Assembly (NCBI GenBank): GCA_964468745.1
Contig: CAYXVY010000140.1
Location: 5,945-69,944, forward strand
DNA: 64,000 nt
Reading direction: 5' to 3'
DNA from: an uncultured Planctomycetales bacterium
GTDB lineage: Bacteria > Planctomycetota > MHYJ01 > JACPRB01
The notes under the pieces: model-generated
Told to the model about the DNA's origin: nothing
The model's database searches: none
Seen by the model: the letters and a program-made list of their open reading frames with translations, nothing else
Part shown: piece after piece, positions 2,575 to 51,639 of the stretch
Layout: every line of letters starts with the position of its first letter
Position numbering within the stretch: the stretch's first letter is position 1
Translations under genes and position numbers: made by a program

Positions 2575-3351
2575 ATGAATGAGCGGTCACTGCTCTGCGT
2601 GGCGCATCCGGGACACGAGCTGCGCGTCTACGGCTGGCTGGCGCAAGCGCGTCCCATCGTGTGCGTCGTCACCGACGGTTCGGGACGCTCGGGGCGCTCG
2701 CGCATCGAGGCCACACGCGAGACGCTCCTCGAGACGGGGTGCGTCGTCGGGCCCGTTTTCGCGCCGCTCACCGATGCGGATGCCTATCGCGCCGTCACCA
2801 CGGCCGACGCCGCACCGTTCATCCGCATCATCGACGACCTGGTCCGTACGATCGTCGAATGTGACATTCGATGCCTCGTGGGGGACGCCGCCGAAGGATA
2901 CAACCCGGCCCACGACGTCTGCCGCCTCATCCTCAACGGCGCCGGAGAAGCGTGTCGGCGGAGGGGGCATGCGCTGCGAAACCTCGAATTTCCCCTGTTC
3001 GGCGATCCCGCCGCGTGCCCCGACGCGCTTCGCTCGCAGGCCGTCGAATTGCGCCTCAGCGAGGCAATGTTCGAGGCGAAGCTCAAGGCGGCGCGACGCG
3101 AGGCGGATCTCGGCGTCGATGTGGACCAGGCGCTGCGCGAGGCGGGCGCCGACGCTTTCCGCTGCGAAGTCCTGCGGCCCTGCCTCACCACGGGCCCGAC
3201 TGACGGACTCCCGGACGCACCGACCGTCTACGAGCGATACGGCGAGGGGAAGGTGGCGGAAGGCAAGTACGCGACGGTGATCCGGCGACGTGAGCACGTG
3301 CTTCCCTTGGCGGCCGCCCTATGGCGTCACGCGGAGAGCGCCGGCCCATGA
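2575..3351 (+). CDS. PIG-L / LmbE-family N-acetylglucosaminyl deacetylase-like protein
   Basis: ORF 2539..3351(+). LLCVAHPGHELRVYGW near the N-terminus resembles the AHPDDE motif of PIG-L/LmbE deacetylases. The start is uncertain (2539 or 2575). The stop overlaps the next start (ATGA at 3348-3351). Confidence 0.5.
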   Translation: MNERSLLCVAHPGHELRVYGWLAQARPIVCVVTDGSGRSGRSRIEATRETLLETGCVVGPVFAPLTDADAYRAVTTADAAPFIRIIDDLVRTIVECDIRCLVGDAAEGYNPAHDVCRLILNGAGEACRRRGHALRNLEFPLFGDPAACPDALRSQAVELRLSEAMFEAKLKAARREADLGVDVDQALREAGADAFRCEVLRPCLTTGPTDGLPDAPTVYERYGEGKVAEGKYATVIRRREHVLPLAAALWRHAESAGP

Positions 3352-5426
3352 GCCCGCTGCGCGTCCTCATCACCAACATCACCCTGGCCACGCGGACCGG
3401 CACCGAGTTCTTCGTCCGCGATCTGGCGCACGGCCTCAAGGAGGCCGGCCACCTCCCGATGGTCTACACGCCTGCGCCGGGCTCCGTCGCCGACGAGAGC
3501 CGCGCCGAGGGGATCGCGGTGACGGACGACCTCACACGGTTGCCGGAGCGCCCCGACATCATCCACGGCCACCATACCCTGCAGACCATGGAGGCCGTCG
3601 TGCGCTTTCCCGGGGTGCCGGCGATCTTCGTCGCCCACGACCGCCTCGTCTGGCACGACGCGCCGCCCCTGCACCCGCGCATCCGTCGCCATGTCGCCGT
3701 CGACTACAACTGCCTCGATCGGCTGACGATCGACGCGAAGATCGCGGCGGACCGCACGTGCGTGATTCAAAACGCCGTGGATCTCCGAAAATTCCGCCCG
3801 CGCGATCCCCTCCCCCCGCGCCCGCGGCGGGCCCTGCTCTTCAGCAATTACGCCACGGAGGAGGGTGTTGCGGGGGCCGTTCGCGACGCGTGCGCGCGAA
3901 GCGGCATCGCCCTCGACGTCGCGGGTCAACGGCTGGGAAGCGTTTGCGAGCACCCGGAGTCGGTGCTGGGCGGCTACGATCTCGTGTTCGGGAAGGCGCG
4001 TTGCGCGCTCGAGGCGCTCGCCGTCGGGTGCGCGGTCGTGGTCTGCGATTTCCGCGGAGTCGGAGGTCTCGTGACGCCGGTCGACTTCACGCGCATGCGT
4101 CGCCTCAACTTCGGCATGCGGTTGCTCGTCGAGCCCGTAAGCGCGGAGGTGATCGCGCGCGAGATCGGGCGCTACGATCCGGCGGCCTGCACCGAAGTAA
4201 GCGCCGCCGCGCGGCGCGACGCTTCCCTGGAGGGTCAGGTCGCGCAGTTCGTGCGGCTCTACCACGACGTTCTCGCGGAACCGGCGCCGACTGGGTCGGA
4301 AGCGGAGGCCGTCGGGCGTTACCTCGCTTCCCTTATGCCCGCCTGCACGGAAATCGCCGTGCGCGCCGGCGACGGGCTGGCGGGGAGCGTCATCCATCCG
4401 CGCGCCAACCCCGCGCCAGACGAACGTGCGGCCCTGGAGGCCCAGATTGACGCGATCCGCAACTCTGCCGCGATGCGTGTGCGGGATCGCCTGCTCTCGA
4501 TGCCCGGCGTCGGCCCCGTCGCGCTCTACCTCGCCCGCTGGCTCTCGGGAAAGCATGCAAGCACCGGGCTGCGCCATCCGATGCCCGTCATCGTTGGGGT
4601 CCCGCGCTCGGGGACAACGCTCCTGCGGTTCATGCTCGACGCGCACCCGCTGCTGGCGATCCCTCCCGAGACGGGCTGGCTGCCGGAGGTCGCGAAGATG
4701 AAGCCGACGGGCAACGGTCCCGAGGCGCTCCTGAAGACGATCGCCGATCCCCCCAACTGGTCCGACTTCAAGCTGACGCGAGGAGCGCTCGAGGCGGCGC
4801 TGCGGGCCGTGCGGCCGTTCACGATCAGCGACGGCGTGCGCGCCTTCTACCGGCTGTACGCGCTCCGCTTCGATAAGCCGCGCTGGGGCGAGAAGACGCC
4901 GGGATACGGCCTGCACATGCTCGGCATCGAACGCGTGCTCCCGGAGTCGCACTTCATCCACCTCATCCGCGATGGACGCGACGTGGCCGCGTCCGTGCGC
5001 GGGCTGCCGTTTGCGCCCGGAAATACGATGGAGTCGATCGCGAACGATTGGTGCCGTCGCATTCGCGAGACCCGCGCGCAGGCGCGCCGCTGTCGGCGCT
5101 ATCTCGAGATTCGGTACGAAGATTTGATCCTCAAGCCCGCCGAGACCGTCCAGAGCGTGTGCACATTCATCGATCTCGTCTACGATCCCGCCATGCTCGA
5201 GTACTACCGGCGAAGCCGGGGACGCCTGATGGAGCACGAGGCGGGCGTCGCCCCCGATGGCCGCCCGATCACCAAGCAGGAACGCATCGAGAATCAGCGC
5301 TTCACGATGCAGCCGCCCGATGCTGCTCGGATCGGTCGCTGGCGGCAGGCTCTGAGCGCCCAAGAGATCGCGGAGTTCGAACGGGTCGCGGGACCGCTGT
5401 TGCGCGAACTCGAATATGCCAGATAG
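3348..5426 (+). CDS. Bifunctional glycosyltransferase (GT4-like, N-terminal) fused to a PAPS-dependent sulfotransferase domain (C-terminal)
   Basis: ORF 3321..5426(+), probable start MSPLRVLITN at 3348 (translationally coupled ATGA). The N-terminal ~320 aa have GT-B/GT4 features. The C-terminal ~270 aa carry the sulfotransferase 5'-PSB motif (IVGVPRSGTTLLRFML), 3'-PB motif (IRDGRDVAASV) and the typical WCRRIRE...RYEDLI region. Confidence 0.75.
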   Translation: MSPLRVLITNITLATRTGTEFFVRDLAHGLKEAGHLPMVYTPAPGSVADESRAEGIAVTDDLTRLPERPDIIHGHHTLQTMEAVVRFPGVPAIFVAHDRLVWHDAPPLHPRIRRHVAVDYNCLDRLTIDAKIAADRTCVIQNAVDLRKFRPRDPLPPRPRRALLFSNYATEEGVAGAVRDACARSGIALDVAGQRLGSVCEHPESVLGGYDLVFGKARCALEALAVGCAVVVCDFRGVGGLVTPVDFTRMRRLNFGMRLLVEPVSAEVIAREIGRYDPAACTEVSAAARRDASLEGQVAQFVRLYHDVLAEPAPTGSEAEAVGRYLASLMPACTEIAVRAGDGLAGSVIHPRANPAPDERAALEAQIDAIRNSAAMRVRDRLLSMPGVGPVALYLARWLSGKHASTGLRHPMPVIVGVPRSGTTLLRFMLDAHPLLAIPPETGWLPEVAKMKPTGNGPEALLKTIADPPNWSDFKLTRGALEAALRAVRPFTISDGVRAFYRLYALRFDKPRWGEKTPGYGLHMLGIERVLPESHFIHLIRDGRDVAASVRGLPFAPGNTMESIANDWCRRIRETRAQARRCRRYLEIRYEDLILKPAETVQSVCTFIDLVYDPAMLEYYRRSRGRLMEHEAGVAPDGRPITKQERIENQRFTMQPPDAARIGRWRQALSAQEIAEFERVAGPLLRELEYAR

Positions 5427-5472: not shown

Positions 5473-6185
5473 ATGTCGTCTCCCCCGATCAGGATCTCCA
5501 TCGACGTCTCGCACACGTTGACCCACGGCGCCTCGACGGGGATCCAGCGCATCGTACGGAACGTCGCGCGATGGGCCGCGGAAGCAGGCGAGGACGCGGG
5601 GATCGAGGGCCGCCCCATCGTCGTGGACAACCGCAGATCCCGCCGCCCGCGGTGGCCGTACGCCCACGTCCCCTTCATTTCGGCGATAGTAGCCGGCACC
5701 CCGCTACCCCCGGCATCTGCCGAACGCCCAGGCCAGGGAACAAGAAGCGCGGGCACACGCGCCGCAAGCCGTGCGAATCCTGCAGGCAGTTTATGAACGT
5801 CACGAGTCCATTGCGCTGGCTGGGTACCCAGTGGACGCGGCTTAAAGAAGAAGGCTTGGCCGCACGAACCTTGGCGCTGGGCAAAAAACTTTTGAGACCC
5901 GTGCTGCGCGGCTGCTTCCGCTTTGCCGGTTCACGCCCGCGCCTGAAACGGGCAGGCGCACGGCTGGCAAGAAATTCCGGCCTGTATGGGCCTCTGCATT
6001 CGCTGTACCTGCGCTTATCCGGCAAGGCCCTTCCGGTCGCGATCCTGGATCACGAGCTGCTGTTCAATGACGATGCGGAGGAAACCTCGCCCGCCAGGAT
6101 GCCGGGGAAACTGACCCTCGACGAACTCCTTTCGCGCATTCGCGCGGAACTGGCAGACCCCAAGAAACAGGGACAGCCACGGTGA
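5473..6185 (+). pseudogene. Frameshifted, truncated N-terminal fragment of a GT4 glycosyltransferase; a paralog of the 50311..51639 gene
   Basis: Two ORFs in different frames (5473..5796 and 5793..6185) resemble the N-terminal domain of the GT at 50311..51639 (ISIDVSHTLTHGASTGIQRIVRNVARW vs LIECTASFTSGLNTGVQRVMRGLANN; LLRPVLRGCFRFAGSRPRLKRAG vs LRAVLPSGVARSVIRTLKRAE). No catalytic C-terminal domain follows. The AT-richer block begins near 5800. Confidence 0.4.
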
Positions 6186-7240
6186 CGCCACAAGGTTCCG
6201 CACAATACACTTCGCACCGTGACCCGCTTCGGGTTGCCGTCCTGACAGCCGGACCCTCCACCGGAGAGCAGGGTGGAGCCGAGCGTCTCTATCAAACGCT
6301 GCTCAAGGGTCTGCTCGAGATCGGGTGCAGGGCGGAATTGATCCCGGTATCCGCAGACGAGCGCTCATTCGAGCAGATCGTGAGGAACTACGACCAAGTC
6401 CAACGCATGGACCTCTCGGCGTTCGACGTGGTCATCTCGACAAAAGCCCCGACCTTTGCGGTGGAGCACCCGAACCATGTGATGTACCTCACGCACACGA
6501 TCCGGGTGTACGACGACATGTTCCACGATGCGTTTCCCAAGCCTCATCCCCGGCATTGGGTCGAGCGCGCCAAGTTGCATGCAAGAGACTTCCAGTGCAT
6601 GTCCCGCATCAAGGCGAAGTTCGCTCTAAGTCATGAAGTCGCGAGGCGGCTGTACCGCTGGCGCGGGATCAGGGCCGAGGTATTGCACCCGCCCCTTGGC
6701 GTCCAGGGCTTCCGGCAAGGCGAGACAGGGGACTACTTCTTCCTGCCCGGACGCCTGCATCCTTGGAAGCGTGTCGACCTGCTCATCGAGGCGGTTCGGC
6801 ATTCATCGATGCCGCTGCGTCTCATCATCGCCGGCACCGGCGAAGCGGAGGCAGACCTGAGGCGCCGGGCCGCAGGCGATCCGCGCATCCGATTGGCCGG
6901 GCACATCAGCGATGAGGAATTGTTCGTGTACTATTCCGGCGCGCTGGCCATACCGTTCGTGCCTTTGCGGGAAGACTACGGCTACGTAACGCTCGAAGCG
7001 TTCGCCAGCGGCAAGGCCGTCGTGACGTGCAGCGATTCCGGCGAACCGACCCATTTCGTGAAGCACGGAGAAACCGGCCTTGTCAGTGCCCCGGACGCGC
7101 ACAGCCTGTGCGAATCGCTGGAATGGCTCTTTACCCATCGTGATGACGCCCGGAACATGGGACAAAAACGGGAAGACGCTGCTCGATGGCATGGCCTGGT
7201 CCAAGGTTGCCTCCCGGCTTGTGGACGCCGCGCTGGACAA
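6182..7240 (+). CDS. Glycosyltransferase family 4; C-terminus requires a +1 shift at an A5 run (about 7161-7168) to read the typical GT4 end
   Basis: ORF 6182..7954(+). The first ~330 aa are a good GT4 (RVAVLTAGPSTGEQGGAERLY...EAFASGKAVVTCSDSGEPTHFVKHGETGL). After DDARNMGQ the track frame becomes Arg-rich junk, whereas the +1 frame gives NGKTLLDGMAWSKVASRLVDAAL, a typical GT4 C-terminus. The shift maps to ggacaaaaacggg. Confidence 0.6.
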
Positions 7241-9299
7241 GACGCCCGCAACTCCGCCCGCACCGACAAGAGTCACCGTGCTCGACATGCAACCCATCGA
7301 CCCACCGGTCGGCGGAGGACGGCTGCGCCTGCTCGGTGTCTACCACAACCTTGGCGACAGGGTGGATTGCACGTACGTAGGCTCCTACGACTGGCCGGGG
7401 GAACGGCACAGAAAACACCGGCTGAGCGCCTGCCTCGAAGAAATCGACGTTCCTCTCAGCGACGAACACCACGCCGCGGCGCGGGCTTGGAGCGCCCATG
7501 CGGGCGGCAAGACCGTCATCGACATTTCGTTCGGCAAGCTTGGGAAGCTGTCCACCGAATACCTGGACGCCGCCCGCCGAAATATTCGCGATGCCGACAT
7601 CGTGGTCTTCTCCCATCCCTGGGTCTACCCGCTGGTCGCAGGGGATCTCTCACCGCGTCAGATCGTCGTCTACGACTCCCAGAATGTCGAAGGCTACCTT
7701 CGCGCCCAGTTGCTCGACGAGAGCAACGGGGCCGAGGCCAAGCTGTTGCGGCAGGTGGTCGACGACGAATACCAGCTGGGCTGCCGCGCGGACCTGATTC
7801 TCGCGTGCTCGCACGAGGACCTGCTTCGCTTCCAGCGGATTTACGAGTTCCCGCCGGACAGGATACGGGTCGTGCCGAACGGAGTGATGGCGTTCGCACA
7901 TCCGGTGCCAAGCCGCGAAGACAAGTCGAAGGCAAAAGCCGGACTGAAGCTTGAGAAAGGCCGTCTGATAGCGGTCTTCATCGGCAGCGCCTACGGACCC
8001 AATATCGAGGCCGGAAAGTTCATCATGGAGCACCTGGCGGACACGCTGCCGGACGTCACCTTCGTGCTTGCGGGAGGCGTCGGAGCCGAAGTGCCGGGCC
8101 GCAAGCGCAACGTCATCGTCACCGGCGGCCTGAACGAACAAGAAAAGCTGCGGTGGCTCTCCGCAGCCGACATCGCCATCAATCCCATGTTTTCGGGCTC
8201 GGGCACCAACATCAAGATGTTCGACTTCATGGCGATGGCGTTGCCTACCGTGACCACGGCCACCGGCGCGCGCGGCATCGATACCGGTGGACGTGACGCA
8301 TTGATCATCGCGGAACCCAGCACAGCGGCGTTCACCGATGCCATTCAGCGGCTCCGCGACGAAGAGACGCGAAACCGGATGGGCCGCGAGGCGCGTGCAT
8401 GCGTCGAGGAAGGCTACGCCTGGGAACGCATTTCCGGCCTTACAGGCCGGATGCTCGTGGCCAGGCATGCGCTGGCCGGACAGCCGCGCCCCATGTTCTC
8501 CGTGGTGATCCCCAGTTACGAGCGCCACCCCAAGCTGGATACGTTGATGGTCAGCTTGCAGAAACAGGTGGAAAGGGACTTCGAGGTCATCATCGTGGAC
8601 CAGACCGCGTCGCGCTGGCCTGGCGCGGAGAAAGAGTACGGATTCCCGTGCCTCTACTACCCCTCTTCGGTCAAGGGCGCGGTCCGGGCGCGCAACACCG
8701 GCGCCATGCTGGCGCAGGGCAGCGTAATCGCGTTCACCGACGACGACTGCATGCCGACCGAGGGCTGGCTGGCCAATGCCCGCAAGTACTTCCGCAGCCG
8801 CCGCGTGGTGGGCGTCGAAGGCATGATCGTATCCGACCACCTGGGCGAGTCCGATTGGCGCCCCGTCACCAATGTCGGCTTCGAAGGCGCCGGGTTCATG
8901 ACCGCCAACCTGATGGTGCGCAGCGACGTCTTCCAGAAACTCGGCGGCTTCGACCTGCAGTTCGACCGCCCGCACTTTCGCGAAGACACCGACTTCGGCT
9001 GGCGCATGACGGGCGCCGGCTTGGTGCCGTACGCGAAGGACGTCACCGTTTTCCATCCGGCCCAGCCCCGCTCCCTGGAGCGGGAATCAGCGGGTACTCG
9101 CGCCCGTCTCTTCCAGAAAGACGCATTGCTGTACCGCAAGCATCCGGACTCTTACCGACGGCTGTTCATGAAAGAGCGCCATTACCGGATCACGCCGGGG
9201 TTCAGGGAAAACGTGCTTGCCGGATTCTGCGCAACGGGGGACAAGATGCCGGAATGGATGGAGAAGCTCATCGGGAATGAACCTGATCCCATGTGCTGA
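7080..9299 (+). CDS. Bifunctional glycosyltransferase: GT4 domain (N-terminal) + GT2 domain (C-terminal); true start uncertain (possibly the ATG at 7287, or fused to the upstream GT4 via frameshift)
   Basis: GT4-like region (RIRVVPNGV...FIGSAYGPNIEAGKF...INPMFSGSGTNIKMFDFMAMALPTVTT) is followed by a GT2 domain (MFSVVIPSYERHPKLDTLMVSLQKQ...FEVIIVDQTAS...FTDDDCMP). No stop separates it from the upstream GT4 in the shifted frame. Confidence 0.7.
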   Translation: MSVPRTRTACANRWNGSLPIVMTPGTWDKNGKTLLDGMAWSKVASRLVDAALDKTPATPPAPTRVTVLDMQPIDPPVGGGRLRLLGVYHNLGDRVDCTYVGSYDWPGERHRKHRLSACLEEIDVPLSDEHHAAARAWSAHAGGKTVIDISFGKLGKLSTEYLDAARRNIRDADIVVFSHPWVYPLVAGDLSPRQIVVYDSQNVEGYLRAQLLDESNGAEAKLLRQVVDDEYQLGCRADLILACSHEDLLRFQRIYEFPPDRIRVVPNGVMAFAHPVPSREDKSKAKAGLKLEKGRLIAVFIGSAYGPNIEAGKFIMEHLADTLPDVTFVLAGGVGAEVPGRKRNVIVTGGLNEQEKLRWLSAADIAINPMFSGSGTNIKMFDFMAMALPTVTTATGARGIDTGGRDALIIAEPSTAAFTDAIQRLRDEETRNRMGREARACVEEGYAWERISGLTGRMLVARHALAGQPRPMFSVVIPSYERHPKLDTLMVSLQKQVERDFEVIIVDQTASRWPGAEKEYGFPCLYYPSSVKGAVRARNTGAMLAQGSVIAFTDDDCMPTEGWLANARKYFRSRRVVGVEGMIVSDHLGESDWRPVTNVGFEGAGFMTANLMVRSDVFQKLGGFDLQFDRPHFREDTDFGWRMTGAGLVPYAKDVTVFHPAQPRSLERESAGTRARLFQKDALLYRKHPDSYRRLFMKERHYRITPGFRENVLAGFCATGDKMPEWMEKLIGNEPDPMC

Positions 9300-11361: not shown

Positions 11362-11804
11362 GAGGGCGTGCCCGTGGATTCCCCGCCGGTCGGGGTGATC
11401 GGGCCCGCCGAAGCGCCGTCGAGCTGCTTACGCAGCGTCGTCACCTCCCGGCGAAGGTCGTCGTTGCAGGCGGCCAGCTCCCGGACTGCCTCGAGGAGGT
11501 TGAGGTTGACGCGGCGCTGATCGCGGAAGAGCAGTTCGAAAAGCCTGAGGAACCAGCCGCGGAGCACGCCGCTGCGGTTGAACGGAAACCGGTTCAGCTG
11601 GCGCGGCAGCTCGGTGCGAACACGCGCGCCATGCTCCGCCTGCGCAAGCAGGCCGAGGATCCGCCAGCGATCCGCGGGCAGCCGCAGCACGGCGGAGGAG
11701 GCGCCCGACGGCAGGTCTGCCTCGACGCGATGCGCCCGGGTCGCGTCCCGGATCGCCGACATCAGGTCCTCGACATCCCGTTGGTTGCCGGCAAGGCCGT
11801 TCAT
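11358..11804 (-). CDS. Hypothetical protein with a predicted C-terminal coiled coil, co-transcribed with the GT2+GT4 gene
   Basis: ORF 11358..11804(-). Stop overlaps the start of the downstream GT gene (ATGA). The C-terminus LLEAVRELAACNDDLRREVTTLRKQLD is heptad-like. No recognisable catalytic motif. Confidence 0.4.
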   Translation of the reverse strand: MNGLAGNQRDVEDLMSAIRDATRAHRVEADLPSGASSAVLRLPADRWRILGLLAQAEHGARVRTELPRQLNRFPFNRSGVLRGWFLRLFELLFRDQRRVNLNLLEAVRELAACNDDLRREVTTLRKQLDGASAGPITPTGGESTGTPS

Positions 11805-14284: not shown

Positions 14285-14290
14285 GATTCT

Positions 14291-15367: not shown

Positions 15368-15378
15368 AAGAGGGGCAG

Positions 15379-15384
15379 ATTATA
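15379..15384 (-). promoter_or_regulatory. -10 box (CCCCTATAATC) with TTGAGA -35 for cysD
   Basis: Minus-strand sequence reads TTGAGAccgcgcgcgcctgcccCTATAATctgcccctctt-ATG(15367). Confidence 0.55.
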
Positions 15385-15486
15385 GGGGCAGGCGCGCGCG
15401 GTCTCAATGGCTGCGCGCGCGTGGGACGTGTGAGGTTGGAGCTTTGAAGGGCGGAACGCGGAACGGTGACCCACCCTTCCAACGAC

Positions 15487-43599: not shown

Positions 43600-44505
43600 T
43601 CAGGCGAGATCTCCCAAGCGACACGTGGCGTGACTGATCACGTCGACGACAGGGAGATGCGCGATGAGCCGCAGTCGATCCGAACCCGATACGAATGTGA
43701 GCTTGCCCGATTGATCTCGCGATTCCCGATATCGGCTCTCGACATACGCTTCGGCAGCGGTCAGCCGCCTGAATGAAGCCGCAAGATCCACTCGAACGAA
43801 GAACGCGTTCAGTCCCGCACTCGTACAGCCCACCAGCTGGTATCCTTTTGCCTTAGCCGCATGGCAAAGGGCCGGGAGCGAGGCGCCCCAATACAGATTC
43901 GATTCATGCGCGCGAGTTCGGTGGAATTCAGCCTCATACGGAATCGTAACCGAGTGAACCTTGCCGAAGATGCTGTTGTATTCGCAAACGACGATCCGGG
44001 GTTGGATGACGGTAATCGCCTGCCAGACCCAATAGTCGTTCCCGTCGATGTCGATGCTCAGGAGCCCGATGTCCCCGGAGAAGCCTGCCGCTTGGATTGT
44101 GGTATTGATGTTCTCCCGGGTGATAAAGGAACGGATCGCCTTGAGCTGATGCCTCCAGTAGATCGGATCCTGCTTGATGTACTCGATGTGATTTCCGTCG
44201 CAGTCGATGACGAGGCCTTGCCAGTTATTGTGACGCACCAAGAACCGCGTGTTGGACTCCAAGTAGTCCTCAACGCCGATCTCCACGAAGACCTGATTCT
44301 CTAGCAGAACGCGTTGTATGAGATGCTGGATGATGCCGTCCTCGCCATATTGCGAATAGACTCGGAACTCAAGCTCTGAAAGTCGTGAAAAGGATTGGAT
44401 CCGTCCGACCCGCTCTGCTTGCTGTTGGCCCAGCAGCATCAGTGCAGCATCGTCACGCGTCATGAATCTGCGAATCTTCGCCAGAAGACCCTTCACGAGT
44501 TTCAC
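43600..44505 (-). CDS. FkbM-family methyltransferase (putative sugar O-methyltransferase); markedly AT-richer than surroundings
   Basis: GLLSIDIDGNDYWVWQAI...PRIVVCEYN matches the FkbM-type l.iDvEG.E..vl.....P.i..E.h region. Confidence 0.55.
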   Translation of the reverse strand: MKLVKGLLAKIRRFMTRDDAALMLLGQQQAERVGRIQSFSRLSELEFRVYSQYGEDGIIQHLIQRVLLENQVFVEIGVEDYLESNTRFLVRHNNWQGLVIDCDGNHIEYIKQDPIYWRHQLKAIRSFITRENINTTIQAAGFSGDIGLLSIDIDGNDYWVWQAITVIQPRIVVCEYNSIFGKVHSVTIPYEAEFHRTRAHESNLYWGASLPALCHAAKAKGYQLVGCTSAGLNAFFVRVDLAASFRRLTAAEAYVESRYRESRDQSGKLTFVSGSDRLRLIAHLPVVDVISHATCRLGDLA

Positions 44506-44615: not shown

Positions 44616-46496
44616 GTGCTCGCGTTGCTCCCCGGCCTCACGTTCCTGGCGCTGCTGGCCGTCCTGCGCACCCGGGCGCCGCACGCGGACTGGAGGGACA
44701 GCTATCTGGCGGCCGCTGTACTGATCGGCGTCTACCTCACCGCCGCCACCGAAGTCCTGAGTGTCCTCCACGCCTTGCATGCGACGGCGCTGGTCTGCGT
44801 CTGGACCCTGCCGTGCGCCCTGCTCACCGTCTGGCTGATTCGCAAGCGCACCGATTGGTCGACTTCACTGCTGCCGCGGGGTTGCCGACGGGCTGAGTCG
44901 ATGATCGTTCTTACGATTGTCGGTATCGTCGGCCTGATCGCAATGATCGCACCGCCGAACAACTGGGATTCGATGACCTACCACATGGCGCGAGTGGCGC
45001 ACTGGAAGCAGAACGCGACAGTCGCCTTCTATCCCACGCACATCATGCGACAGCTGCATCCGCCGCCGGGATCGGAATACGCCCTGGCGCACGTCTTCAT
45101 CCTCGGCGGGGATCGGTTTGTGAATTTGGTCCAGGGGTTCGCGTTCGCAGCCGCAGCTGTGGCGGCCAGTCGACTCGCCGACCATCTCGGCGCCCCTGCT
45201 CCTGCGCAGTGGCTCGCCGCGATGCTGGTGCTCACCACGCCGATGGCGATTCTGCAGGGATCGAGCACGCAGAATGACCTCGTGGCAGCCATGTGGGTGG
45301 CGATTTTCGTCACCTTCGGGACCCGGTGGCTGAGCGATCGCAGGTTCGTGTCCCTCATGCTTGGCGCCGGAGCGCTCGGATTGGCGCTGCTGACGAAGGG
45401 CACGTCGTACGTCTTCGCGGCGCCGTTCGTGATCGGATTCGGAGCGGCGATCATCAGACATCGCGGGCTCCGGGCTTGGCGACCCCTTGTGGCCACTGTC
45501 GCGATCGTCGTGGCACTGAACGCAGGCCACTACGCGCGGAACGCCGGACTCTATGGTCATCCCCTCGGTCCGGCCACCGGCAGAGACGCGGACGAGAAAG
45601 TGAAGTACACGAACGACATCGTGACGCCACTGTCCGTGGCTTCGACCATCGTCCGCAACGTCGCGAGCCATTTCATGTCGACCCCCCTCCGGCCCGTGAA
45701 TCGGCTCGCCCACGCTGTCACCGTCGCGCTTCATGAACGCACAGGGTGCGACGTCAGCGACCCCCGCACGACCTTCGGTCTCCCCTTCGCGATCCCCCGC
45801 TCGTGGAGGCACGAGGATTCGATCGGAAATCCACTGCATCTGTTGATCGGCGCCGTGGCGCTCGCCCTGTTCATCCGCCGGCGCCGGGAGATTCCCAACG
45901 CGCGAAATCTGGCCGCGTTCGTCGCGGCGTGCGCCGCGGCCGCGCTCCTGTTCTGCGTGCTGTTCCGATGGCAGATGTGGAGCACGCGCCTTCACCTCCC
46001 GCTATTCGTCCTGGGAAGCGCGTTCGCCGCCTCGGCGCTTCCGCCGGGCGCCACGCGCCTGCGCTTCGCGGTGCTGGCCGTCGTTCTCGTCGGAGCCGTG
46101 CCGTGCCTTGTTTACAACAAGAGCCGGCCCATCGTCGGCGAGGGTAGCATTCTCACGACCCCGCGGACGGAGCTCTATTTCAGCAATCGCCGTGACCTGT
46201 ATGCCCCCTATCAAGACGCCGCCGCCCGAGTCCGCGCCGCGGGGGTGACGGAGATCGGTCTCATCGCCGGATCGGACGACTGGGCGTATCCGCTGTTCGC
46301 GCTGCTCGGCCCGGGGGTGCGCATCGTGCACGTCGATGTGGAGAACGCCTCGCGCACGCTGCCGGGGGCGCGCCTTCACGGTTCGCTCGACGTGATCGCA
46401 TGTCTGGATCCCGCACGCACGTCCCAGCTCAGCACTGATCGCGACTACGCGCTCTGGGCCGCATTCGACCGCATATCGCTGTTCCGGAGGCGATGA
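44616..46496 (+). CDS. Polytopic membrane protein (~11 TM + ~200-aa C-terminal domain), GT-C/PMT-ArnT-like; candidate glycosyltransferase or polymerase
   Basis: 626 aa. Loop with NNWDSMTYHMARVAHW after TM1-2. Repeated hydrophobic helices, then a soluble C-terminal domain. Confidence 0.4.
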   Translation: MLALLPGLTFLALLAVLRTRAPHADWRDSYLAAAVLIGVYLTAATEVLSVLHALHATALVCVWTLPCALLTVWLIRKRTDWSTSLLPRGCRRAESMIVLTIVGIVGLIAMIAPPNNWDSMTYHMARVAHWKQNATVAFYPTHIMRQLHPPPGSEYALAHVFILGGDRFVNLVQGFAFAAAAVAASRLADHLGAPAPAQWLAAMLVLTTPMAILQGSSTQNDLVAAMWVAIFVTFGTRWLSDRRFVSLMLGAGALGLALLTKGTSYVFAAPFVIGFGAAIIRHRGLRAWRPLVATVAIVVALNAGHYARNAGLYGHPLGPATGRDADEKVKYTNDIVTPLSVASTIVRNVASHFMSTPLRPVNRLAHAVTVALHERTGCDVSDPRTTFGLPFAIPRSWRHEDSIGNPLHLLIGAVALALFIRRRREIPNARNLAAFVAACAAAALLFCVLFRWQMWSTRLHLPLFVLGSAFAASALPPGATRLRFAVLAVVLVGAVPCLVYNKSRPIVGEGSILTTPRTELYFSNRRDLYAPYQDAAARVRAAGVTEIGLIAGSDDWAYPLFALLGPGVRIVHVDVENASRTLPGARLHGSLDVIACLDPARTSQLSTDRDYALWAAFDRISLFRRR

Positions 46497-46504: not shown

Positions 46505-47335
46505 TCAGAGTTCGCTCTTCACGGCGTCGATCATGTCCGCGAGGGTGGCGCGCAGATCGTGCCGAGGACGCCAGCCGGTCGCCCGGCGCAGCCGGGTCGC
46601 ATCCCCCACCTGGACGTCCGCCGGCCGCAGACGACGGGGATCCTGGACGACCCGCACGCTCCTGCCGGAGAGCCGGATGAGCGTGTCGAGAAGGTCGCCG
46701 ATCCTCCAGCCGCGCCCGGAGGCGATGTTATACGTTTCGCCCCGCCGGCCGCGCTCGATGAGCAGCCGGTAGGCGGCAACGACGTCGCGCACGTCGAGGA
46801 AATCGCGAACCGAGTCGAGCTGGCCGACGCGCACGACGGGCCCGGTCACGACCTGCCGGGCGAACGACCCACACACGAACGATTCCTTCTGGCCCGGGCC
46901 GGTGTGGTTGAAGGGACGCGCGATCACCACATCGAGACGATCCTGGGCGCGCGCGACCGCCTCCGCCATCACCTTGCTCCACGCGTACGGATTGCGAGGG
47001 TCGAGGGGATCCGTCTCGCGGATCGGGCGGCCGACGAGCCGGTAGATCTCGGCCGAGCTCACGATGAGGACGCGTCCGCCGAACCCCTCGAGCGCCTCCA
47101 GAAGACGCGCCGTGCCGAGCGTGTTGATCTCGAACGTCTCGTCCGGACTCAGGCGCGACTGACCGGGGTGCGACTTTGCGGCCAGATGGAAGACAGCGTC
47201 GCCCCGGAAGCCGCGCGCCCTGCGCGGATCGCGGATATCGCCCTGAAGGAGGGTGACGCGCGAGCCCGCCTCGCGCAAGGCCGCGACGAGATGGCGTCCC
47301 ACGAAGCCGTTGCCCCCCGTCACCAGCGCATGCAT
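46505..47335 (-). CDS. NAD(P)-dependent epimerase/dehydratase-family reductase, short form (Rmd-like GDP-4-keto-6-deoxy-D-mannose reductase candidate)
   Basis: MHALVTGGNGFVGRHL (Rossmann GxxGxxG), YAWSK (YxxxK), 276 aa. Divergent from fcl and next to gmd. Confidence 0.55.
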   Translation of the reverse strand: MHALVTGGNGFVGRHLVAALREAGSRVTLLQGDIRDPRRARGFRGDAVFHLAAKSHPGQSRLSPDETFEINTLGTARLLEALEGFGGRVLIVSSAEIYRLVGRPIRETDPLDPRNPYAWSKVMAEAVARAQDRLDVVIARPFNHTGPGQKESFVCGSFARQVVTGPVVRVGQLDSVRDFLDVRDVVAAYRLLIERGRRGETYNIASGRGWRIGDLLDTLIRLSGRSVRVVQDPRRLRPADVQVGDATRLRRATGWRPRHDLRATLADMIDAVKSEL

Positions 47336-47414: not shown

Positions 47415-48395
47415 ATGGCCGAGATTCTGAAATTCGATGCGCGCATCTTCGTAACGGGACACTTGGGTCTCGTCGGCTCCGCCATCCTGCGCCGGCTGCA
47501 GCGCGAGGGGTTTTCGAATCTCCTGACCGCCACGCGGAAGGAGCTCGATCTTCGTGATCAGCACGCAACCGAGACATGGTTCCGCAAGAACCGTCCGGAG
47601 TACGTCTTCCTCGTCGCCGGAACGGTCGGCGGCATTCACGCGAACTCGACGCGCCCCGCGACCTTCCTTTATGACAATCTGATGATTCACGCGACCGTCG
47701 TGCACGCCGCGCACCTGACGGACGTGAAAAAGCTCCTCTATCTCGGCAGCTCGTGCATCTATCCGCGCAACGCGCCGCAGCCGATGCGCGAGGAGTATCT
47801 TCTGACCGGCCCCCTCGAGCCGACGAACGAGGGGTATGCCGTGGCCAAGATCGCCGGCATCAAGATGTGCCAGTTCTACCGCCAGCAGTACGGCCGCAAC
47901 TTCATCTCCGCGATGCCGACGAACGTCTACGGACAGTTCGACAACTTCGACCTGCAGGACGCCCACGTCCTGCCCGCGCTGATCCGCAAGTTTCACGAGG
48001 CCGCGCGCGACACGTCGGGCCAGGTGACGATCTGGGGGTCCGGAACGCCGCGCCGCGAGTTCCTGCATGCCGATGACCTCGCCGAGGCATGCCTCTTTCT
48101 CATGCGCACGTATGAAGACGCCTCCCACGTGAACGTGGGGACCGGGATCGATCTGACAATCCGCGAGCTGGCGGAGACAATCCGTCGCATCGTGTCGCCG
48201 AACGTAAAGCTGGTCTTCGACAGCACCAAGCCCGACGGCATGCCGCGCAAGCTGCTCGACGTCGGCCGCCTGCAAAAACTCGGATGGAGCGCGCGCATCG
48301 GGCTCGAGGACGGCGTCCGCGACACGTACGCGTGGTTCGCAAAGAACTACGACGCGGCGGTGGCGCGCCGGCGATCGCACGCCGCCGTTCCGTAG
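47415..48395 (+). CDS. fcl: GDP-L-fucose synthase (GDP-4-keto-6-deoxy-D-mannose 3,5-epimerase/4-reductase)
   Basis: IFVTGHLGLVGSAILRRL, YAVAKIAG, LTGPLEPTNEGYAVAK, and the overall WcaG/Fcl pattern, ~326 aa. TAGACT -10 sits 9 nt upstream of the ATG. Confidence 0.85.
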   Translation: MAEILKFDARIFVTGHLGLVGSAILRRLQREGFSNLLTATRKELDLRDQHATETWFRKNRPEYVFLVAGTVGGIHANSTRPATFLYDNLMIHATVVHAAHLTDVKKLLYLGSSCIYPRNAPQPMREEYLLTGPLEPTNEGYAVAKIAGIKMCQFYRQQYGRNFISAMPTNVYGQFDNFDLQDAHVLPALIRKFHEAARDTSGQVTIWGSGTPRREFLHADDLAEACLFLMRTYEDASHVNVGTGIDLTIRELAETIRRIVSPNVKLVFDSTKPDGMPRKLLDVGRLQKLGWSARIGLEDGVRDTYAWFAKNYDAAVARRRSHAAVP

Positions 48396-48430: not shown

Positions 48431-49396
48431 GTGAAACGGGCGCTGATCACCGGCATCACCGGTCAGGACGGGTCGCACCTCGCCGACCTTCTCCTCGAGA
48501 AGGGGTACGAAGTGCACGGCATGGTGCGCCGCTCCAGCACGGAGAACTTCGAGCGCATCGCGCATCTCACGCACCGGGTGACGCTGCACCAGGCCGACCT
48601 TCTCGACCAGCTCTCGATCATCGACATGATCCAGACTGTCCGGCCGAAGGAGGTGTACAACCTCGCCGCGCAGTCGTTCGTTCCGATCTCGTGGGTCCAG
48701 CCGGTCCTCACCGCCGAGTACACGGCGCTGGGCGCCACCCGGGTCCTCGAGGCAATCCGTCTGGTCGATCCCAAGATCCGCTTTTACCAGGCGTCGTCGA
48801 GCGAGATGTTCGGGAAAGTCCTCGAGACCCCGCAGAAGGAGTCGACGCCGTTCTATCCGCGCAGCCCGTACGGCGTCGCCAAGTGCTACGCGCACTTCCT
48901 CACGGTGAACTACCGCGAGAGCTACAACCTGTTCGCGTGTTCGGGAATCCTGTTCAACCACGAAGGTCCGCGGCGCGGCCGCGAGTTCGTCACCCGGAAG
49001 ATCACACACGCGGTCGCCGAAATCAAGCTGGGCCGCCGCAAGAACCTGGCGCTCGGAAACCTCGATGCGCGCCGCGACTGGGGATTCGCGGGGGACTACG
49101 TCCGCGCCATGTGGCTGATGCTCCAGCTGAAGAAGCCCGACGATTTCGTCATCGCCACGGGACGGTCCCACACCGTCCGCGAGTTCTGCGACATCGCCTT
49201 TGCGCACGCCGGGCTCGACTGGCGGAAGCACGTCGTCGTGGACCGCAAGCTCTACCGTCCCGCGGAGGTGCACACGCTCTGCGGCGACGCGTCCAAGGCG
49301 CGACGCAAGCTGGGCTGGAAGCCAGCGGTGGGGTTCGAAGCGCTCGTGCACATGATGGTGGACGCGGATCTCGAGAGGCTGGGCCGCACGTCCTGA
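48431..49396 (+). CDS. gmd: GDP-mannose 4,6-dehydratase
   Basis: [33 protein letters not shown]...[37 protein letters not shown] is the Gmd signature. GTG start. Confidence 0.9.
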
Positions 49397-50314
49397 TCAC
49401 GGGGCGGACGGCGTCCCGGAGAACGATCGCCGCAGGCCGAGGGCGGCGAGCACGCGTCGCGACGCGCGCAGAAAGCTGCTGCGGACGAGCTCCAGCGCGC
49501 GCAGCGCGAGGTGCGCTACGGCGTGGAACATGTGGCGCGGCGGGCAGTAGCGCACGAAGGCGGCCACGACGGGCCGCCAGTAGTAGGGGGAGCGCTTGTG
49601 AAAGAGGAGGTCGTAGAGCCGGCGCACGTTTGTCGAGCTGGTCGTGTCGTTCCACACGACGGCATCGAGATTCACGCACGCGTCGTATCCATGCTTGCGC
49701 GCGCGCAGGACGAGCTCGGAATCGGCGTGGTACTGGGGGAAGTTGACGGCGTCGTACACTCCGATGCGACGGTAGCAGCGCGCCGGAACGAGCGTGCCGC
49801 ACCCGGTGAGGATGTCCGTCGGAACCTCGCGGGCCGGGGAGGGCGCGGCGCCGTCGGAATGGGGCGTGGCGCGCATCTGGAAGATGTTTCCGTTGCGCCA
49901 GTCCATCCGGCCGCCGATCGTCCAGATCTGCTCCGGGTCGTCCATATAGTGGATACGGCTCCCCACGATCGTGCGGCTGCGGCGCTCGGCCGTACCAACG
50001 AGGTGATCGAGGAAGTCGGGGCGCACGACGGAATCGTTGTTGATGGTCAGCACGTAGTCGAATCCGTTGCGAAGGGCGAAACGGACGCCGACGTTGGTGC
50101 CGCCGGCCCACCAGAGGTTGCCGCTCCCCGGAAGCACGGTTGCCTCCGGGAACTCCTTTCCCAGGATCTCGCGGGTGCCGTCGCTGGAGCGGTCGTCGAC
50201 GATCACGATCCGGTAGTTGGAATAGCGAACGTTGCGGAACGATTCGAGGAAGCGCCGCGTCAGCCGGATCTTGTTGAAGACAGGGACGACGACGGCCACC
50301 GTGGGGGCGCTCAT
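49397..50314 (-). CDS. Glycosyltransferase family 2
   Basis: Starts at the internal Met (MSAPTVAVVVPVFNKIRLTRRFLESF...IVIVDDRSSDGT), whose ATG 50314 overlaps the upstream stop (ATGA). The longer track ORF N-terminus is junk. Confidence 0.75.
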   Translation of the reverse strand: MSAPTVAVVVPVFNKIRLTRRFLESFRNVRYSNYRIVIVDDRSSDGTREILGKEFPEATVLPGSGNLWWAGGTNVGVRFALRNGFDYVLTINNDSVVRPDFLDHLVGTAERRSRTIVGSRIHYMDDPEQIWTIGGRMDWRNGNIFQMRATPHSDGAAPSPAREVPTDILTGCGTLVPARCYRRIGVYDAVNFPQYHADSELVLRARKHGYDACVNLDAVVWNDTTSSTNVRRLYDLLFHKRSPYYWRPVVAAFVRYCPPRHMFHAVAHLALRALELVRSSFLRASRRVLAALGLRRSFSGTPSAP

Positions 50315-51639
50315 GGCGACGCTCCGCCGGCGGGCGGCACCAGGCTCAGGGCCGTGCGCAGGAAGTCCTCGCAGGATTCCTGCCAGGTGCACTGCCGGAA
50401 GGACGCGCCGCTGCCACGCTCCGCGGCTGGCGCCAAGAGCAAGTCGGCCAGCGTGGACGCCGAATCGAGCGGGAAATACGTGCACGCCTCGCCCCCCACC
50501 TCGCGATGCACGGGCGTGTCGCTCGCGAGGACGCGCAGTCCGCGTCCCAGCGCCTCGGCGATCGGGAGTCCGTACCCTTCATGCGTGGACGGGAAGACGA
50601 GCCCGCGGGCATTCCCGTACGCGTAGGTCAGCTCGTCGTCGGTCGCATCGTTGATCATGAACAACCGGTGGCCCAGCTCGCCGTGTCGCTGGATGCGATC
50701 CACGGTTTTCTGCGACAGCGGGTTGATCCGTCCCAGGATGCACAGTCGCGCGTCGCCGCCCTGCTTCCAGAGGGCGTCGAACGCGTCGAGAAGAAAGGCG
50801 TGATTCTTCCTCGGCTCGATGCTGCCGACGGCGATCCAAGGCTGCGGCGAGCTCTCGAAGACTTGGCGCAAGTCGGCACGGACGGCGGACGCCGACGCCG
50901 GATCCGCACGATCGAGGGTCGCGGCGAGTCGAAAGGCCTCGGCGCGGAGCGGCCTCGCGTCTCCCTGCGACTGCTCGCGGAGCCAGGCCCGAAGGTCGTC
51001 GCGCGTCCAGCGCGAGATCGTCAGGCAGAAATCGACGTTCGGCATGACGGCGTCGAACCACTGGCGGTAGTCGGCGACGATGCCGGCGGGCAGCAGTTCC
51101 GGGGCGCGCAGCGGGATGAGATCGTAGAGGACGCATCCGACTGTCGCGCGCGAGGCGCGTAACGTGTCGAAGACGCTGTCGAAGGGGAGGTGCCACGAAA
51201 TGTCGGCGAGAATGACGATGTCCTGCTGCGTCAGCACGAGCGTCGACTCGCGGTCCCCCGACCGGCTTCGCGTTTCGGCGCGCTTCAACGTGCGGATGAC
51301 GGATCGCGCGACCCCGGAGGGCAGGACGGCGCGCAGCGTTCGTCCCGCGATCTCGCGCAGCCGCTGGCGCTTCGAGAGCGAGGGGGACGAAAGCGAAAGT
51401 CCGTCGATCGCGTGAAACGCGCCGTCGGAGAAGACGACGGGGCGGCAGTCGATCCCGAGCGAGCGGCCCACCTCGACGCAGTTGTTCGCGAGGCCGCGCA
51501 TGACGCGCTGCACGCCCGTGTTCAATCCTGACGTGAAGCTGGCCGTGCACTCGATGAGGACGCGCCGCACGGACGGGGTCGCACCGGGGCGGAGCTGCAT
51601 GGGCAGTCGCTTATACACCGAGACTCGCCGCGGGGACAA
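50311..51639 (-). CDS. Glycosyltransferase family 4 (WbdA/mannosyltransferase-like, with an N-terminal ...TG.QRV... domain)
   Basis: N-terminus VLIECTASFTSGLNTGVQRVMRGLANN. C-terminus VFPSTHEGYGLPIAEALGRGLRVLASD. Confidence 0.8.
   Translation of the reverse strand: MSPRRVSVYKRLPMQLRPGATPSVRRVLIECTASFTSGLNTGVQRVMRGLANNCVEVGRSLGIDCRPVVFSDGAFHAIDGLSLSSPSLSKRQRLREIAGRTLRAVLPSGVARSVIRTLKRAETRSRSGDRESTLVLTQQDIVILADISWHLPFDSVFDTLRASRATVGCVLYDLIPLRAPELLPAGIVADYRQWFDAVMPNVDFCLTISRWTRDDLRAWLREQSQGDARPLRAEAFRLAATLDRADPASASAVRADLRQVFESSPQPWIAVGSIEPRKNHAFLLDAFDALWKQGGDARLCILGRINPLSQKTVDRIQRHGELGHRLFMINDATDDELTYAYGNARGLVFPSTHEGYGLPIAEALGRGLRVLASDTPVHREVGGEACTYFPLDSASTLADLLLAPAAERGSGASFRQCTWQESCEDFLRTALSLVPPAGGASP

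Follow-up and report, generated by a model that had tools for sequence, protein, structure and literature searches.

The stretch analysed here (64,000 nt of contig CAYXVY010000140.1 from an uncultured Planctomycetales bacterium; hereafter the window) carries a predicted surface-glycan biosynthesis locus at 2.5–51.6 kb, which probably encodes two products: a sulfated glycan exported by the ATP-binding cassette (ABC) transporter Wzm/Wzt (cluster A, 2.5–27.3 kb) and a fucose/rhamnose glycan assembled through WbaP and Wzx (cluster B, 32.3–51.6 kb). Sulfated-polysaccharide loci combining genes for the sulfate donor 3′-phosphoadenosine 5′-phosphosulfate (PAPS), sulfotransferases and ABC export have already been published, and a large part of the 49 kb is ordinary for a mosaic glycan locus. 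The new element lies in the core of cluster A, which is conserved and in which an undescribed family with a predicted LmbE fold and a fusion of a glycosyltransferase (GT) of family GT4 to a sulfotransferase (ST) are syntenic with cysDNC and wzm/wzt.

Gene content and organization of the locus

The window is 65 % GC and rich in shadow open reading frames (ORFs). Calling by GC content at third codon positions (GC3) alone picked shadow frames; hence, a codon-usage model, with confident genes as its training set, was used for gene calling, and families were assigned using Pfam and NCBIfam. The locus contains approximately 37 genes, of which 16 are assigned to glycosyl transfer (13 GT-A/GT-B (Leloir) enzymes, two stand-alone GT-C-type proteins and WbaP), a share far above the 1–2 % typical of a genome. 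Five are clear fusions, namely GT4–ST (3348–5426), GT4–GT2 (~7169–9299), GT2–GT4 (9454–11361), GT2–GT2 (19643–22015) and GT2–GT-C (35894–38011); counting the last of these, three GT-C-fold membrane proteins are present. Pfam matches to GT4-conflict (defence) families were judged to reflect generic GT4 similarity.

A preliminary description of this DNA had listed about 17 glycosyltransferase genes, five of them multi-domain fusions, together with a WbaP-like initiator at 39495, GDP-fucose/GDP-rhamnose genes, two PAPS-dependent ST domains, a cysD and cysNC pair with no PAPS reductase nearby, and wzm/wzt alongside a Wzx-like flippase and GT-C-like polytopic proteins. Both the codon model and the family scans bear out this inventory almost item for item, the gene at 2563–3351 (the LmbE/PIG-L-fold partner of the GT4–ST fusion) being overlooked. 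The boundaries given to the locus were also right, as its flanks hold housekeeping genes or genes of no assigned function. Its portrayal as a single 49-kb unit is not supported: the genes fall into 16 strand blocks, and a 5-kb insert without glycan genes (27.4–32.2 kb), carrying regulatory and toxin–antitoxin genes, divides them.

Cluster A contains every sulfation gene together with the ABC exporter; WbaP/Wzx, the genes for GDP-fucose/rhamnose and all GT-C-type proteins fall in cluster B. As the sulfation and deoxyhexose genes are thereby separated by approximately 19 kb or more, the sulfated fucose/rhamnose polymer previously proposed is not indicated, and its 'one or two' glycans are better read as two than as one.

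Cluster A: predicted sulfation and ABC export

The features of cluster A are as follows.

2563–3351, plus strand: LmbE/PIG-L-fold protein (predicted), 262 aa, deacetylase-like; its stop overlaps the next start by 4 nt
3348–5426, plus strand: GT4 fused to a PAPS-type ST, 692 aa (PF13439; PF13469, 102.8 bits, cutoff 27)
5571–6185, plus strand: orf204, no assigned function; weak coding signal, GC3 0.69
6182–7168, plus strand: GT4, frame broken at an A5 run (PF00534, 68.5 bits)
7169–9299, plus strand: GT4–GT2 (PF13692, PF13439, PF00535)
9454–11361, minus strand: GT2–GT4 (PF00535, 69.5 bits; PF13692, 60.4 bits)
11358–11804, minus strand: orf148, no assigned function; GC3 0.87, overlaps the GT2–GT4 start by 4 nt, called in Logan contig L001 too
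12383–14284, minus strand: bifunctional CysN–CysC, the GTPase subunit of ATP sulfurylase joined to adenosine 5′-phosphosulfate (APS) kinase (TIGR02034, 370 > 336; apsK, 266 > 139)
14558–15367, minus strand: CysD, ATP sulfurylase small subunit (NF003587, 347 > 195)
15379–15407, minus strand: sigma-70-like promoter match (11/12), directly upstream of cysD
16873–17628, plus strand: Wzm, ABC-2 permease (PF01061, 55.2 > 26.9), ~5–6 transmembrane segments (TM)
17754–18527, plus strand: Wzt, nucleotide-binding subunit, 257 aa (PF00005, 70.9 > 25; TagH/Wzt-type models best)
18497–19549, minus strand: GT2 of the conserved core (PF00535, 92 bits)
19643–22015, plus strand: GT2–GT2, 790 aa, two PF00535 stretches; GC 0.62, GC3 0.71
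22107–24749, plus strand: 880-aa protein with a C-terminal GT4; N-terminal 660 aa without assignment (GT8 hint, E = 0.017)
24779–25945, minus strand: class I S-adenosylmethionine-dependent methyltransferase (PF13649, PF08241, PF08242) with a 220-aa unassigned N-terminal domain; GC 0.55, the minimum of the locus
25983–27293, plus strand: second ST, ~436 aa, start uncertain (PF13469, 61.7 bits, cutoff 27; PF00685); GC 0.56

The sulfate-activation genes comprise cysD and a cysNC fusion, the APS-kinase motifs of which are intact. The gene at 14558–15367 is CysD, excluding its identification as CysH, and the ORFs called and scanned over the 64 kb include neither CysH nor a sulfite reductase. The promoter match next to cysD is the only one in 20 kb, compared with 2.9 in shuffled sequences, and is weak evidence for a promoter. 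The two genes immediately upstream of cysD, on its strand (15487–16119), form a cassette encoding a DUF5678 protein (~60–64 aa) and one of 143 aa, the latter giving a faint aspartyl-protease-like match (E = 0.005). The cysD/cysNC gap is unusually long (273 nt) and is filled by one copy of a dispersed palindromic element of ~155 nt (14289–14467), the other copy of which (35685–35863) lies between the GT2 and GT2–GT-C genes of cluster B. These copies are 81–83 % identical, their hairpin arms are 90–92 % complementary and both arms vary between copies; the element has a repetitive extragenic palindrome- or miniature inverted-repeat transposable element-like look.

Both ST domains carry recognizable PAPS-binding motifs. 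In the GT4–ST fusion, which is identical to a database protein of 692 aa (P0001), the 5′-phosphosulfate-binding motif is PRSGTT; in the second ST, which has an unassigned 145-aa N-terminal domain, the 5′-phosphosulfate- and 3′-phosphate-binding motifs are GRCGST and RDPRD..S, respectively. The two domains are only 25 % identical to each other. A fucose specificity inferred from NoeE similarity found no support, both STs scoring 28–30 bits against a cutoff of 500; the match covers a short N-terminal stretch in the first ST and falls under the per-stretch threshold in the second. Sequence searches of the PDB returned only the CurM ST (E = 0.06) for the second ST and nothing useful for the GT4 domain of the fusion.

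Wzm and Wzt remain under the specific NCBIfam equivalog cutoffs. Wzt (257 aa) lacks a C-terminal glycan-binding domain, so a cap-recognizing Wzt, with methyl or sulfate as the export-gating cap, is disfavoured. The 753-nt region upstream of wzm contains direct repeats (16208–16367 with 16657–16816, 85 %; 16565–16703 with 16740–16878, 88 %) and a run of four CTTCCAA units (16653–16681), which could represent a regulatory region or a duplication scar.

One GT4 reading frame is interrupted. ORFs 6182–7954 and 7080–9299 overlap, the GC3 signal switches frame at about 7050–7250 and the break maps to the A5 run at 7164–7168, across which the GT4 C-terminal motif ...ARNMGQK is continued, in the next frame, by GKTLLDGMAWSKVASRLV. 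Either the assembly is wrong here and hides a ~1040-aa GT4–GT4–GT2 protein (6182–9299), or the frameshift is real. The neighbouring orf204 was not called by the codon model, has no Pfam match and has no counterpart in the related contig L090 described below, and orf148 returned no family match in the Pfam and NCBIfam scans.

Conservation of the cluster A core in relatives

The nearest relative found is L090 (= L091), a 17.8-kb Joint Genome Institute metagenome contig in which both the order of the core (LmbE-like, GT4–ST, cysNC, cysD, wzm, wzt, GT2) and the strands are conserved. Protein identities between the window and L090 are as follows.

LmbE-like: 58.5 %
GT4–ST: 56 %
CysNC: 69.5 %
CysD: 75 %
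Wzm: 58 %
Wzt: 63 %
GT2: 52 %, position and strand alike

Retention of synteny at 52–75 % identity suggests that PAPS supply, sulfation and ABC export have been selected together. No match to the window Gmd, the sole deoxyhexose gene queried, was present in the 13 kb of L090 seen. Beyond the core, L090 encodes a 1251-aa methyltransferase/GT2/GT4 protein followed by a class I methyltransferase; this GT block differs from that of the window, pointing to a design of conserved core and variable polymerase. The 1251-aa protein (L090, 8582–12337) combines Methyltransf_24, a coiled-coil-like segment (weak match), GT2 and GT4, which the window spreads over several genes, and its coiled coil might serve as a ruler for chain length.

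An independent analogue was identified in a gammaproteobacterial metagenome-assembled genome (MAG; L014), with the order cysD–cysNC–rmlA..rmlB–(sulfatase-family membrane protein)–wzm–wzt–Sulfotransfer_3–GT2. The sulfatase-family protein (PF00884, 727 aa, 15303–17486) is flanked by the rml genes and wzm. Of the 80 CysNC loci ranking best in GTDB representative genomes, where the best CysNC is 54 % identical, only three to four have an ST or exporter nearby, indicating that the linkage is not the default arrangement. The synteny with L090, the L014 analogue and the fusion of an ST to a GT4 together uphold the earlier proposal that sulfate activation, STs, GTs and the ABC exporter belong together.

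Rightwards of the core within cluster A, GC content is 0.55–0.62 in the block at 19.6–27.3 kb compared with ~0.66, and the lowest-GC genes of the locus are the methyltransferase, the second ST and orf301 of cluster B. Such a low-GC block is the usual signature of variable, horizontally exchanged decoration genes.

From the domain identities, predicted folds and conserved synteny observed here, we infer the substrates, how the steps are ordered, what is finally made and which of the glycans bears the sulfate. Multi-domain GT2/GT4 enzymes at the cytoplasmic face would assemble the cluster A glycan on a lipid carrier. It would be sulfated there by the two PAPS-dependent STs with PAPS from the cluster's own CysD/CysN–CysC, probably methylated, and then exported by Wzm/Wzt. 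Cluster A would thus consist of a conserved core and a variable, lower-GC block (GT2–GT2, the 880-aa protein ending in GT4, the methyltransferase and the second ST) for polymerizing and decorating, a layout that resembles serotype-variable O-antigen or capsule loci. Within the core, the LmbE-fold protein and GT4–ST would most likely act in sequence on one residue, an N-acetylhexosamine being added, de-N-acetylated and sulfated.

Cluster B: a predicted WbaP/Wzx pathway

The features of cluster B are as follows.

32267–34501, minus strand: GT-C-fold membrane protein with a C-terminal carbohydrate-binding module (CBM)-like beta-sandwich, 744 aa; no Pfam match, assignment model-based
34541–35512, plus strand: GT2 (PF00535, 94 bits)
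35894–38011, minus strand: polyprenyl-phosphate-sugar-synthase-like GT2 fused to a GT-C (PMT_2) domain (PF00535; PF13231, 41.3 > 26.1), 8 TM
38375–39463, plus strand: GT4 (domain scan)
39495–40940, plus strand: WbaP-type initiating phosphoglycosyl transferase (PF02397, 221 bits; TIGR03022, 427 > 403)
40949–42040, plus strand: GT4 (PF00534, 128.6 bits)
42037–43569, plus strand: Wzx-like (MOP superfamily) flippase (PF01943, 32.7 > 28.2; PF01554), 11 TM
43600–44505, minus strand: orf301, 301 aa, distant FkbM relative (PF05050, E = 0.11); GC 0.56
44616–46496, plus strand: polytopic GT-C-like protein, weak (PF13231, 25.0 < 26.1; Agl23-like, E = 4e-5), ~9 TM
46505–47335, minus strand: Rmd-like GDP-4-keto-6-deoxymannose reductase, a short-chain dehydrogenase/reductase (SDR) with GxxGxxG and YAWSK motifs
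47415–48395, plus strand: GDP-L-fucose synthase Fcl (NF047922, 483.8 bits, cutoff 500, full length)
48431–49396, plus strand: GDP-mannose 4,6-dehydratase Gmd (TIGR01472, 456.7 > 415)
49397–50314, minus strand: GT2 (PF00535, 75 bits)
50311–51639, minus strand: GT4 (PF00534, 60.5 bits); 4-nt overlap of its stop with the GT2 start

WbaP, the two GT4 genes and Wzx form a tight same-strand block with gaps of 31, 8 and −4 nt. The precursor genes are predicted to yield GDP-L-fucose through Gmd and Fcl and GDP-D-rhamnose through Gmd and the Rmd-like SDR, the best PDB matches of which are the Rmd entries 6x3b (5e-49) and 2pk3 (3e-47). We propose that WbaP would initiate the cluster B glycan, that Wzx would flip it and that the three GT-C-fold enzymes would extend or decorate it outside the cytoplasm.

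Of the methyltransferases in the preliminary description, the class I enzyme at 24779 stands and the FkbM-like one at 43600 (orf301) is weakly supported. The latter belongs to a family of 7,222 cluster representatives and has neither an NCBIfam nor a PDB match. In a sample of 38 homologues, PF05050 was matched at E ≤ 1e-3 in five (best 1.8e-5), and five are fused to a GT2; an FkbM-like methyltransferase is a plausible reading of its sequence.

The 744-aa GT-C protein was modelled as a 720-aa core (32267–34429) using 35 homologues, some of which match PF19830/DUF6311, and AlphaFold2 returned a predicted local distance difference test score (pLDDT) of 89.7. A PDB sequence search with this core returned nothing useful; Foldseek retrieved AftD, AglB, ArnT, EmbB and STT3 (E 7e-9 to 1e-5), with CBM35/61/6 for the tail. 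For the 35894–38011 protein, the GT2 domain is nearest to synthases of dolichyl- or undecaprenyl-phosphate sugars (Dol-P-hexose transferase, PgfS, ArnC and AglJ), and this protein would, by its domain content, both produce and consume, outside the cytoplasm, a lipid-linked monosaccharide donor of its own.

An exopolysaccharide was among the products suggested earlier. Against this, Wzy, a polysaccharide co-polymerase (PCP; Wzz/Wzc) and an outer-membrane protein for polysaccharide export (OPX; Wza) gave no Pfam or NCBIfam match in the window, Kps-, Wza- and WaaL-type matches were likewise absent from the window ORFs scanned, and cluster B has three GT-C-fold proteins. Overall, cluster B resembles a pathway that flips a lipid-linked glycan and extends or decorates it extracytoplasmically.

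Within the two-product model, this raises the question of whether cluster B departs from the Wzy type altogether, with GT-C enzymes transferring or decorating a short lipid-linked glycan once it has been flipped, as in protein or S-layer glycosylation or in ArnT/AftD-like envelope modification. The failure to detect Wzy, PCP or OPX and the presence of three GT-C-type proteins, one AftD/AglB/ArnT-like with a CBM-like tail and another fused to a polyprenyl-phosphate-sugar-synthase-like GT2, argue in its favour. However, profile models detect Wzy proteins poorly, the 44616–46496 protein and the 477-aa, 8-TM protein at 52070–53503 could be a polymerase or ligase, and export genes may lie elsewhere, as does the OPX gene of synechan. 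We regard this as a serious possibility that nevertheless falls somewhat short of an even chance.

The LmbE-like/GT4 pair

The 2563–3351 protein has no Pfam or NCBIfam match (none to PF02585 even at E ≤ 5) and no sequence relative in the PDB, even using a 40-sequence profile. An AlphaFold model built from the 40-sequence alignment (pLDDT 94.4) identifies its predicted fold as LmbE/PIG-L. Its invariant residues, compared at the sequence level, are A-H15-P-G-H18-E19 and N114-P-x-H117-D, with the histidines kept.

This gene is consistently associated with the GT4. It lies directly upstream of the GT4 homologue in all five genomic contexts inspected (L002–L004, L085 and L086) and in 30 of the 46 metagenome loci with enough upstream sequence, five more being adjacent in another arrangement. 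Metagenome relatives number 989 for the LmbE-like protein and 871 for the GT4–ST fusion, and 11 more full-length GT4–ST homologues were found at 42–57 % identity, with further ones at 36–41 %. The few named homologues are annotated as coming from Acidobacteriota, Gemmatimonadota (Longimicrobiaceae), Planctomycetota and Methylacidiphilales MAGs. The contexts of the pair are as follows.

L002, L003 and L004: LmbE-like and GT4–ST fusion amid housekeeping genes
L086: the pair alone, without an ST
L085 (Longimicrobium): the pair, a MurJ/Wzx-like flippase, a separate ST and a diacylglycerol kinase (DAGK)-type lipid kinase
L088: Sat–CysC PAPS synthase, two GTs, a Wzx-like flippase, the pair and rml genes
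L089: GTs, the pair and an ST

In L002, a 258-aa upstream gene was considered as the partner and rejected as unrelated (17 % identity); the true partner lies within the 3′ half of the next called gene. The separate ST of L085 is 50 % identical to the ST domain fused in the window, and the occurrence of a fusion in some genomes and of separate genes in others suggests that the three activities are linked. By analogy with MshA/MshB, PIG-A/PIG-L, gpgSDF and HexSDF, the simplest and most likely reading is that the GT4 adds an N-acetylhexosamine, which the LmbE-fold enzyme would de-N-acetylate and the ST would sulfate. More broadly, and only tentatively, the pair, which is often joined to a PAPS-dependent ST by fusion or linkage and, in certain lineages, also occurs with PAPS synthesis genes, a flippase or Wzm/Wzt, may represent a widespread, undescribed bacterial pathway by which an envelope glycoconjugate receives a hexosamine, de-N-acetylated and subsequently sulfated. 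We found no description of the LmbE-like/GT4 pair in the literature searched, and no paper combining LmbE, a sulfotransferase and a glycosyltransferase.

An alternative compatible with the two-product model is that the pair acts autonomously, making a small sulfated amino-sugar conjugate such as a glycolipid or a low-molecular-weight glycoside. It is isolated amid unrelated housekeeping genes in L002, L003, L004 and L086, it is accompanied by a flippase, a separate ST and a lipid kinase in L085, and identities of 44–60 % for the GT4 domain across the inspected contexts and the metagenome loci indicate unusual conservation for a polysaccharide GT. The logic of GT, deacetylase and flippase is also documented, for glucosaminyl (GlcN)-phosphatidylglycerol (PMC12713373). 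Yet in L090 the pair is contiguous with cysNC–cysD–wzm–wzt–GT2, in L088 and L089 it is set among further GTs, and the window GT4 matches neither GlcNAc-PG synthase nor BshA models, leaving an autonomous role possible but doubtful.

Two products or one

The two-product model has several points against it. Among the scanned ORFs of cluster A, there is no initiating transferase, nucleotide-sugar gene, outer-membrane export component or ligase; the sole initiating transferase in the window is the WbaP of cluster B, and the initiating transferase, outer-membrane component and ligase of cluster A may be encoded elsewhere. Judged by gene content, its product may be an O-antigen, a capsule or a glycolipid. 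One GT gene of cluster A is frameshifted, the cysDNC genes could be the cell's only sulfate-activation genes, and it is possible that the cluster A STs act on the cluster B glycan, given that the two assembly lines share the cytoplasm with PAPS. Other points concern the pair. The motif of the LmbE family is AHPDDE ... HxxH; the window protein has AHPGHE, with the classical aspartates replaced, and GalB, a hydratase, is among its structural neighbours, so that deacetylase activity is not assured. In addition, the isolation of the pair amid housekeeping genes in L002–L004 means that it need not serve an exported polymer.

A single product, with all 49 kb directed towards one sulfated, methylated fucose/rhamnose polysaccharide, would account for the contiguity of the genes, for a GT density unbroken save for 5 kb and for the initiating transferase and sugar-nucleotide genes missing from cluster A, which cluster B would supply; Vibrio sp. 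KMM 8419 likewise has adjoining capsule and O-antigen genes. This reading is nonetheless improbable, as the locus has 16 strand blocks and two export logics (Wzm/Wzt and Wzx), its halves are parted by a sigma factor, a kinase and a toxin–antitoxin pair, and the L090 synteny spans only the core of cluster A. Moreover, ABC-dependent pathways normally take their initiating enzyme from elsewhere.

That cysD/cysNC are ordinary assimilatory genes placed by chance amid GTs, with no sulfated glycan being made, is very unlikely: most of the 80 nearest CysNC homologues have no ST or exporter in their locus, CysN–CysC fusions serve assimilation in many bacteria and cysD has its own promoter-like site, but the same cluster holds two ST domains with intact PAPS-binding motifs, the position between GT4–ST and wzm/wzt is kept in L090 despite 25–30 % protein divergence, cysH and sir are absent from the scanned ORFs, and both the independent L014 analogue and a published precedent exist.

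The insert between the clusters and the flanking regions

The insert at 27.4–32.2 kb contains the following features.

27413–28150, plus strand: extracytoplasmic function (ECF)-type sigma-factor-like protein (TIGR02937, E = 1e-5, 25 bits < 42.9, full model covered; PF04542, E = 0.045)
28287–28706, no strand: tandem array of a 42-bp unit, ~8–10 copies at 70–79 % identity, partly palindromic, in the 681-nt gap between the sigma-like gene and orf240
28832–29554, plus strand: orf240, no assigned function; GC3 0.89, no Pfam match, no TM
29806–31326, plus strand: membrane-anchored Ser/Thr protein kinase (PF00069, 128.9 bits) with three C-terminal TM and an N-terminal cysteine-rich segment
31388–31923, minus strand: ParE toxin and a small antitoxin-like gene (PF05016, on the gene called in L087)

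The sigma-like protein, the 240-aa protein and the kinase (27413–31326) could be regulators of one or both clusters. A CRISPR was rejected for the 42-bp array, in which the copies run head-to-tail without spacers. The small gene upstream of ParE is presumably the antitoxin.

Immediately to the right of the locus (51678–53503) lies a gene for an FmdB-type zinc-ribbon protein, the acidic/Thr-rich tail of which is repetitive (12-nt repeat at 51956–52047); this gene overlaps by 4 nt the start of that for the 477-aa protein (52070–53503; ~8 TM, no family match), which may conceivably have a polymerase- or ligase-like role. Further downstream (60087–64000) lie at least four tandem paralogous genes sharing a repeat of ~160–300 nt (62–76 % identity); HEAT repeats are present in each of the three paralogues scanned, and two have a terminal Lys/Glu-rich tail. 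No tRNA gene or Rfam family was found in the window.

Comparison with known systems

The ABC pathways of the E. coli O9a and Klebsiella O2a type are characterized by Wzm/Wzt, large multi-domain polymerizing GTs, completion of the chain in the cytoplasm and methyltransferases. Cluster A is predicted to share all four features, but its Wzt lacks the C-terminal domain, and sulfation is not a feature of the classical ABC-dependent O-polysaccharide systems. The closest known system is the capsule locus of Vibrio sp. KMM 8419, which has second copies of cysNDC, three STs and an ABC exporter beside a Wzx-type O-antigen cluster; its authors call PAPS genes and STs in a polysaccharide cluster a hallmark of sulfated polysaccharide synthesis (PMC11641403). 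Comparison with known sulfated loci, as suggested earlier, identifies the same logic (own cysN/cysD/cysC, STs, GTs, an ABC exporter, deoxyhexose genes and an adjoining Wzx cluster), with the difference that the GDP-linked deoxyhexose genes of the window are in the other cluster. The Vibrio system also differs in its Kps-type export (kpsDMET) and dTDP-rhamnose compared with Wzm/Wzt and GDP-linked genes, in having its STs described as separate genes, with no LmbE-like partner mentioned in the text consulted, and in having a product of solved structure, the window product being predicted from genes alone (PMC11641403). In the window, CysN and CysC are fused. Cobetia marina KMM 1449 provides a further close known system (PMC11766843).

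The synechan xss cluster of Synechocystis PCC 6803 similarly has two STs of different subfamilies among eight GTs and has regulators within the cluster, with the OPX gene encoded elsewhere (PMC8205485). It is dependent on Wzx/Wzy/PCP, and the text of the paper is without 'PAPS' or 'cysN'; in the window, by contrast, the STs are found with an ABC exporter and their own cysDNC. Sulfated polysaccharides were called exclusive to cyanobacteria in that 2021 paper (PMC8205485). Beyond cyanobacteria and marine isolates, our literature search yielded few bacterial systems for sulfated polysaccharides.

Pairing of a GT with an LmbE-type deacetylase is known from MshA/MshB, BshA/BshB and PIG-A/PIG-L. The aminoglycolipid systems gpgSDF (PMC12713373) and HexSDF (PMC10128005) combine a GT, a deacetylase and a flippase. 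The window pair is reminiscent of all five in having a GT4-type gene beside a de-N-acetylase-fold gene, to which some of its relatives add a flippase. It differs in having no match to the family models, in its metal-site motif and in its fused or adjacent ST, which none of the five possesses. In the heparan sulfate N-deacetylase/N-sulfotransferase (NDST), deacetylase and PAPS-sulfotransferase activities are coupled on hexosamine; this offers a possible functional analogy for the LmbE-like protein and GT4–ST, as a lead only.

Implications

The window locus and L090 present a compact gene set, comprising the LmbE-fold gene, the GT4–ST fusion, cysDNC and wzm/wzt, that predicts sulfated envelope glycans in uncultured lineages, and the GT–ST fusion with its deacetylase-fold partner provides candidates for the enzymatic making of defined sulfated (amino)sugars. 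If the pair does act as proposed, bacteria would have an equivalent of heparan sulfate's deacetylate-then-sulfate logic, and uncultured lineages would commonly bear sulfated surface glycans. In the present lineage, the module would then be the conserved core of the pathway to an ABC-exported sulfated polymer, served by a PAPS supply of its own. Should the module be as widespread as the homologue counts suggest, it would bear on anionic envelopes and on the matching of bacterial sulfatases to their natural substrates.

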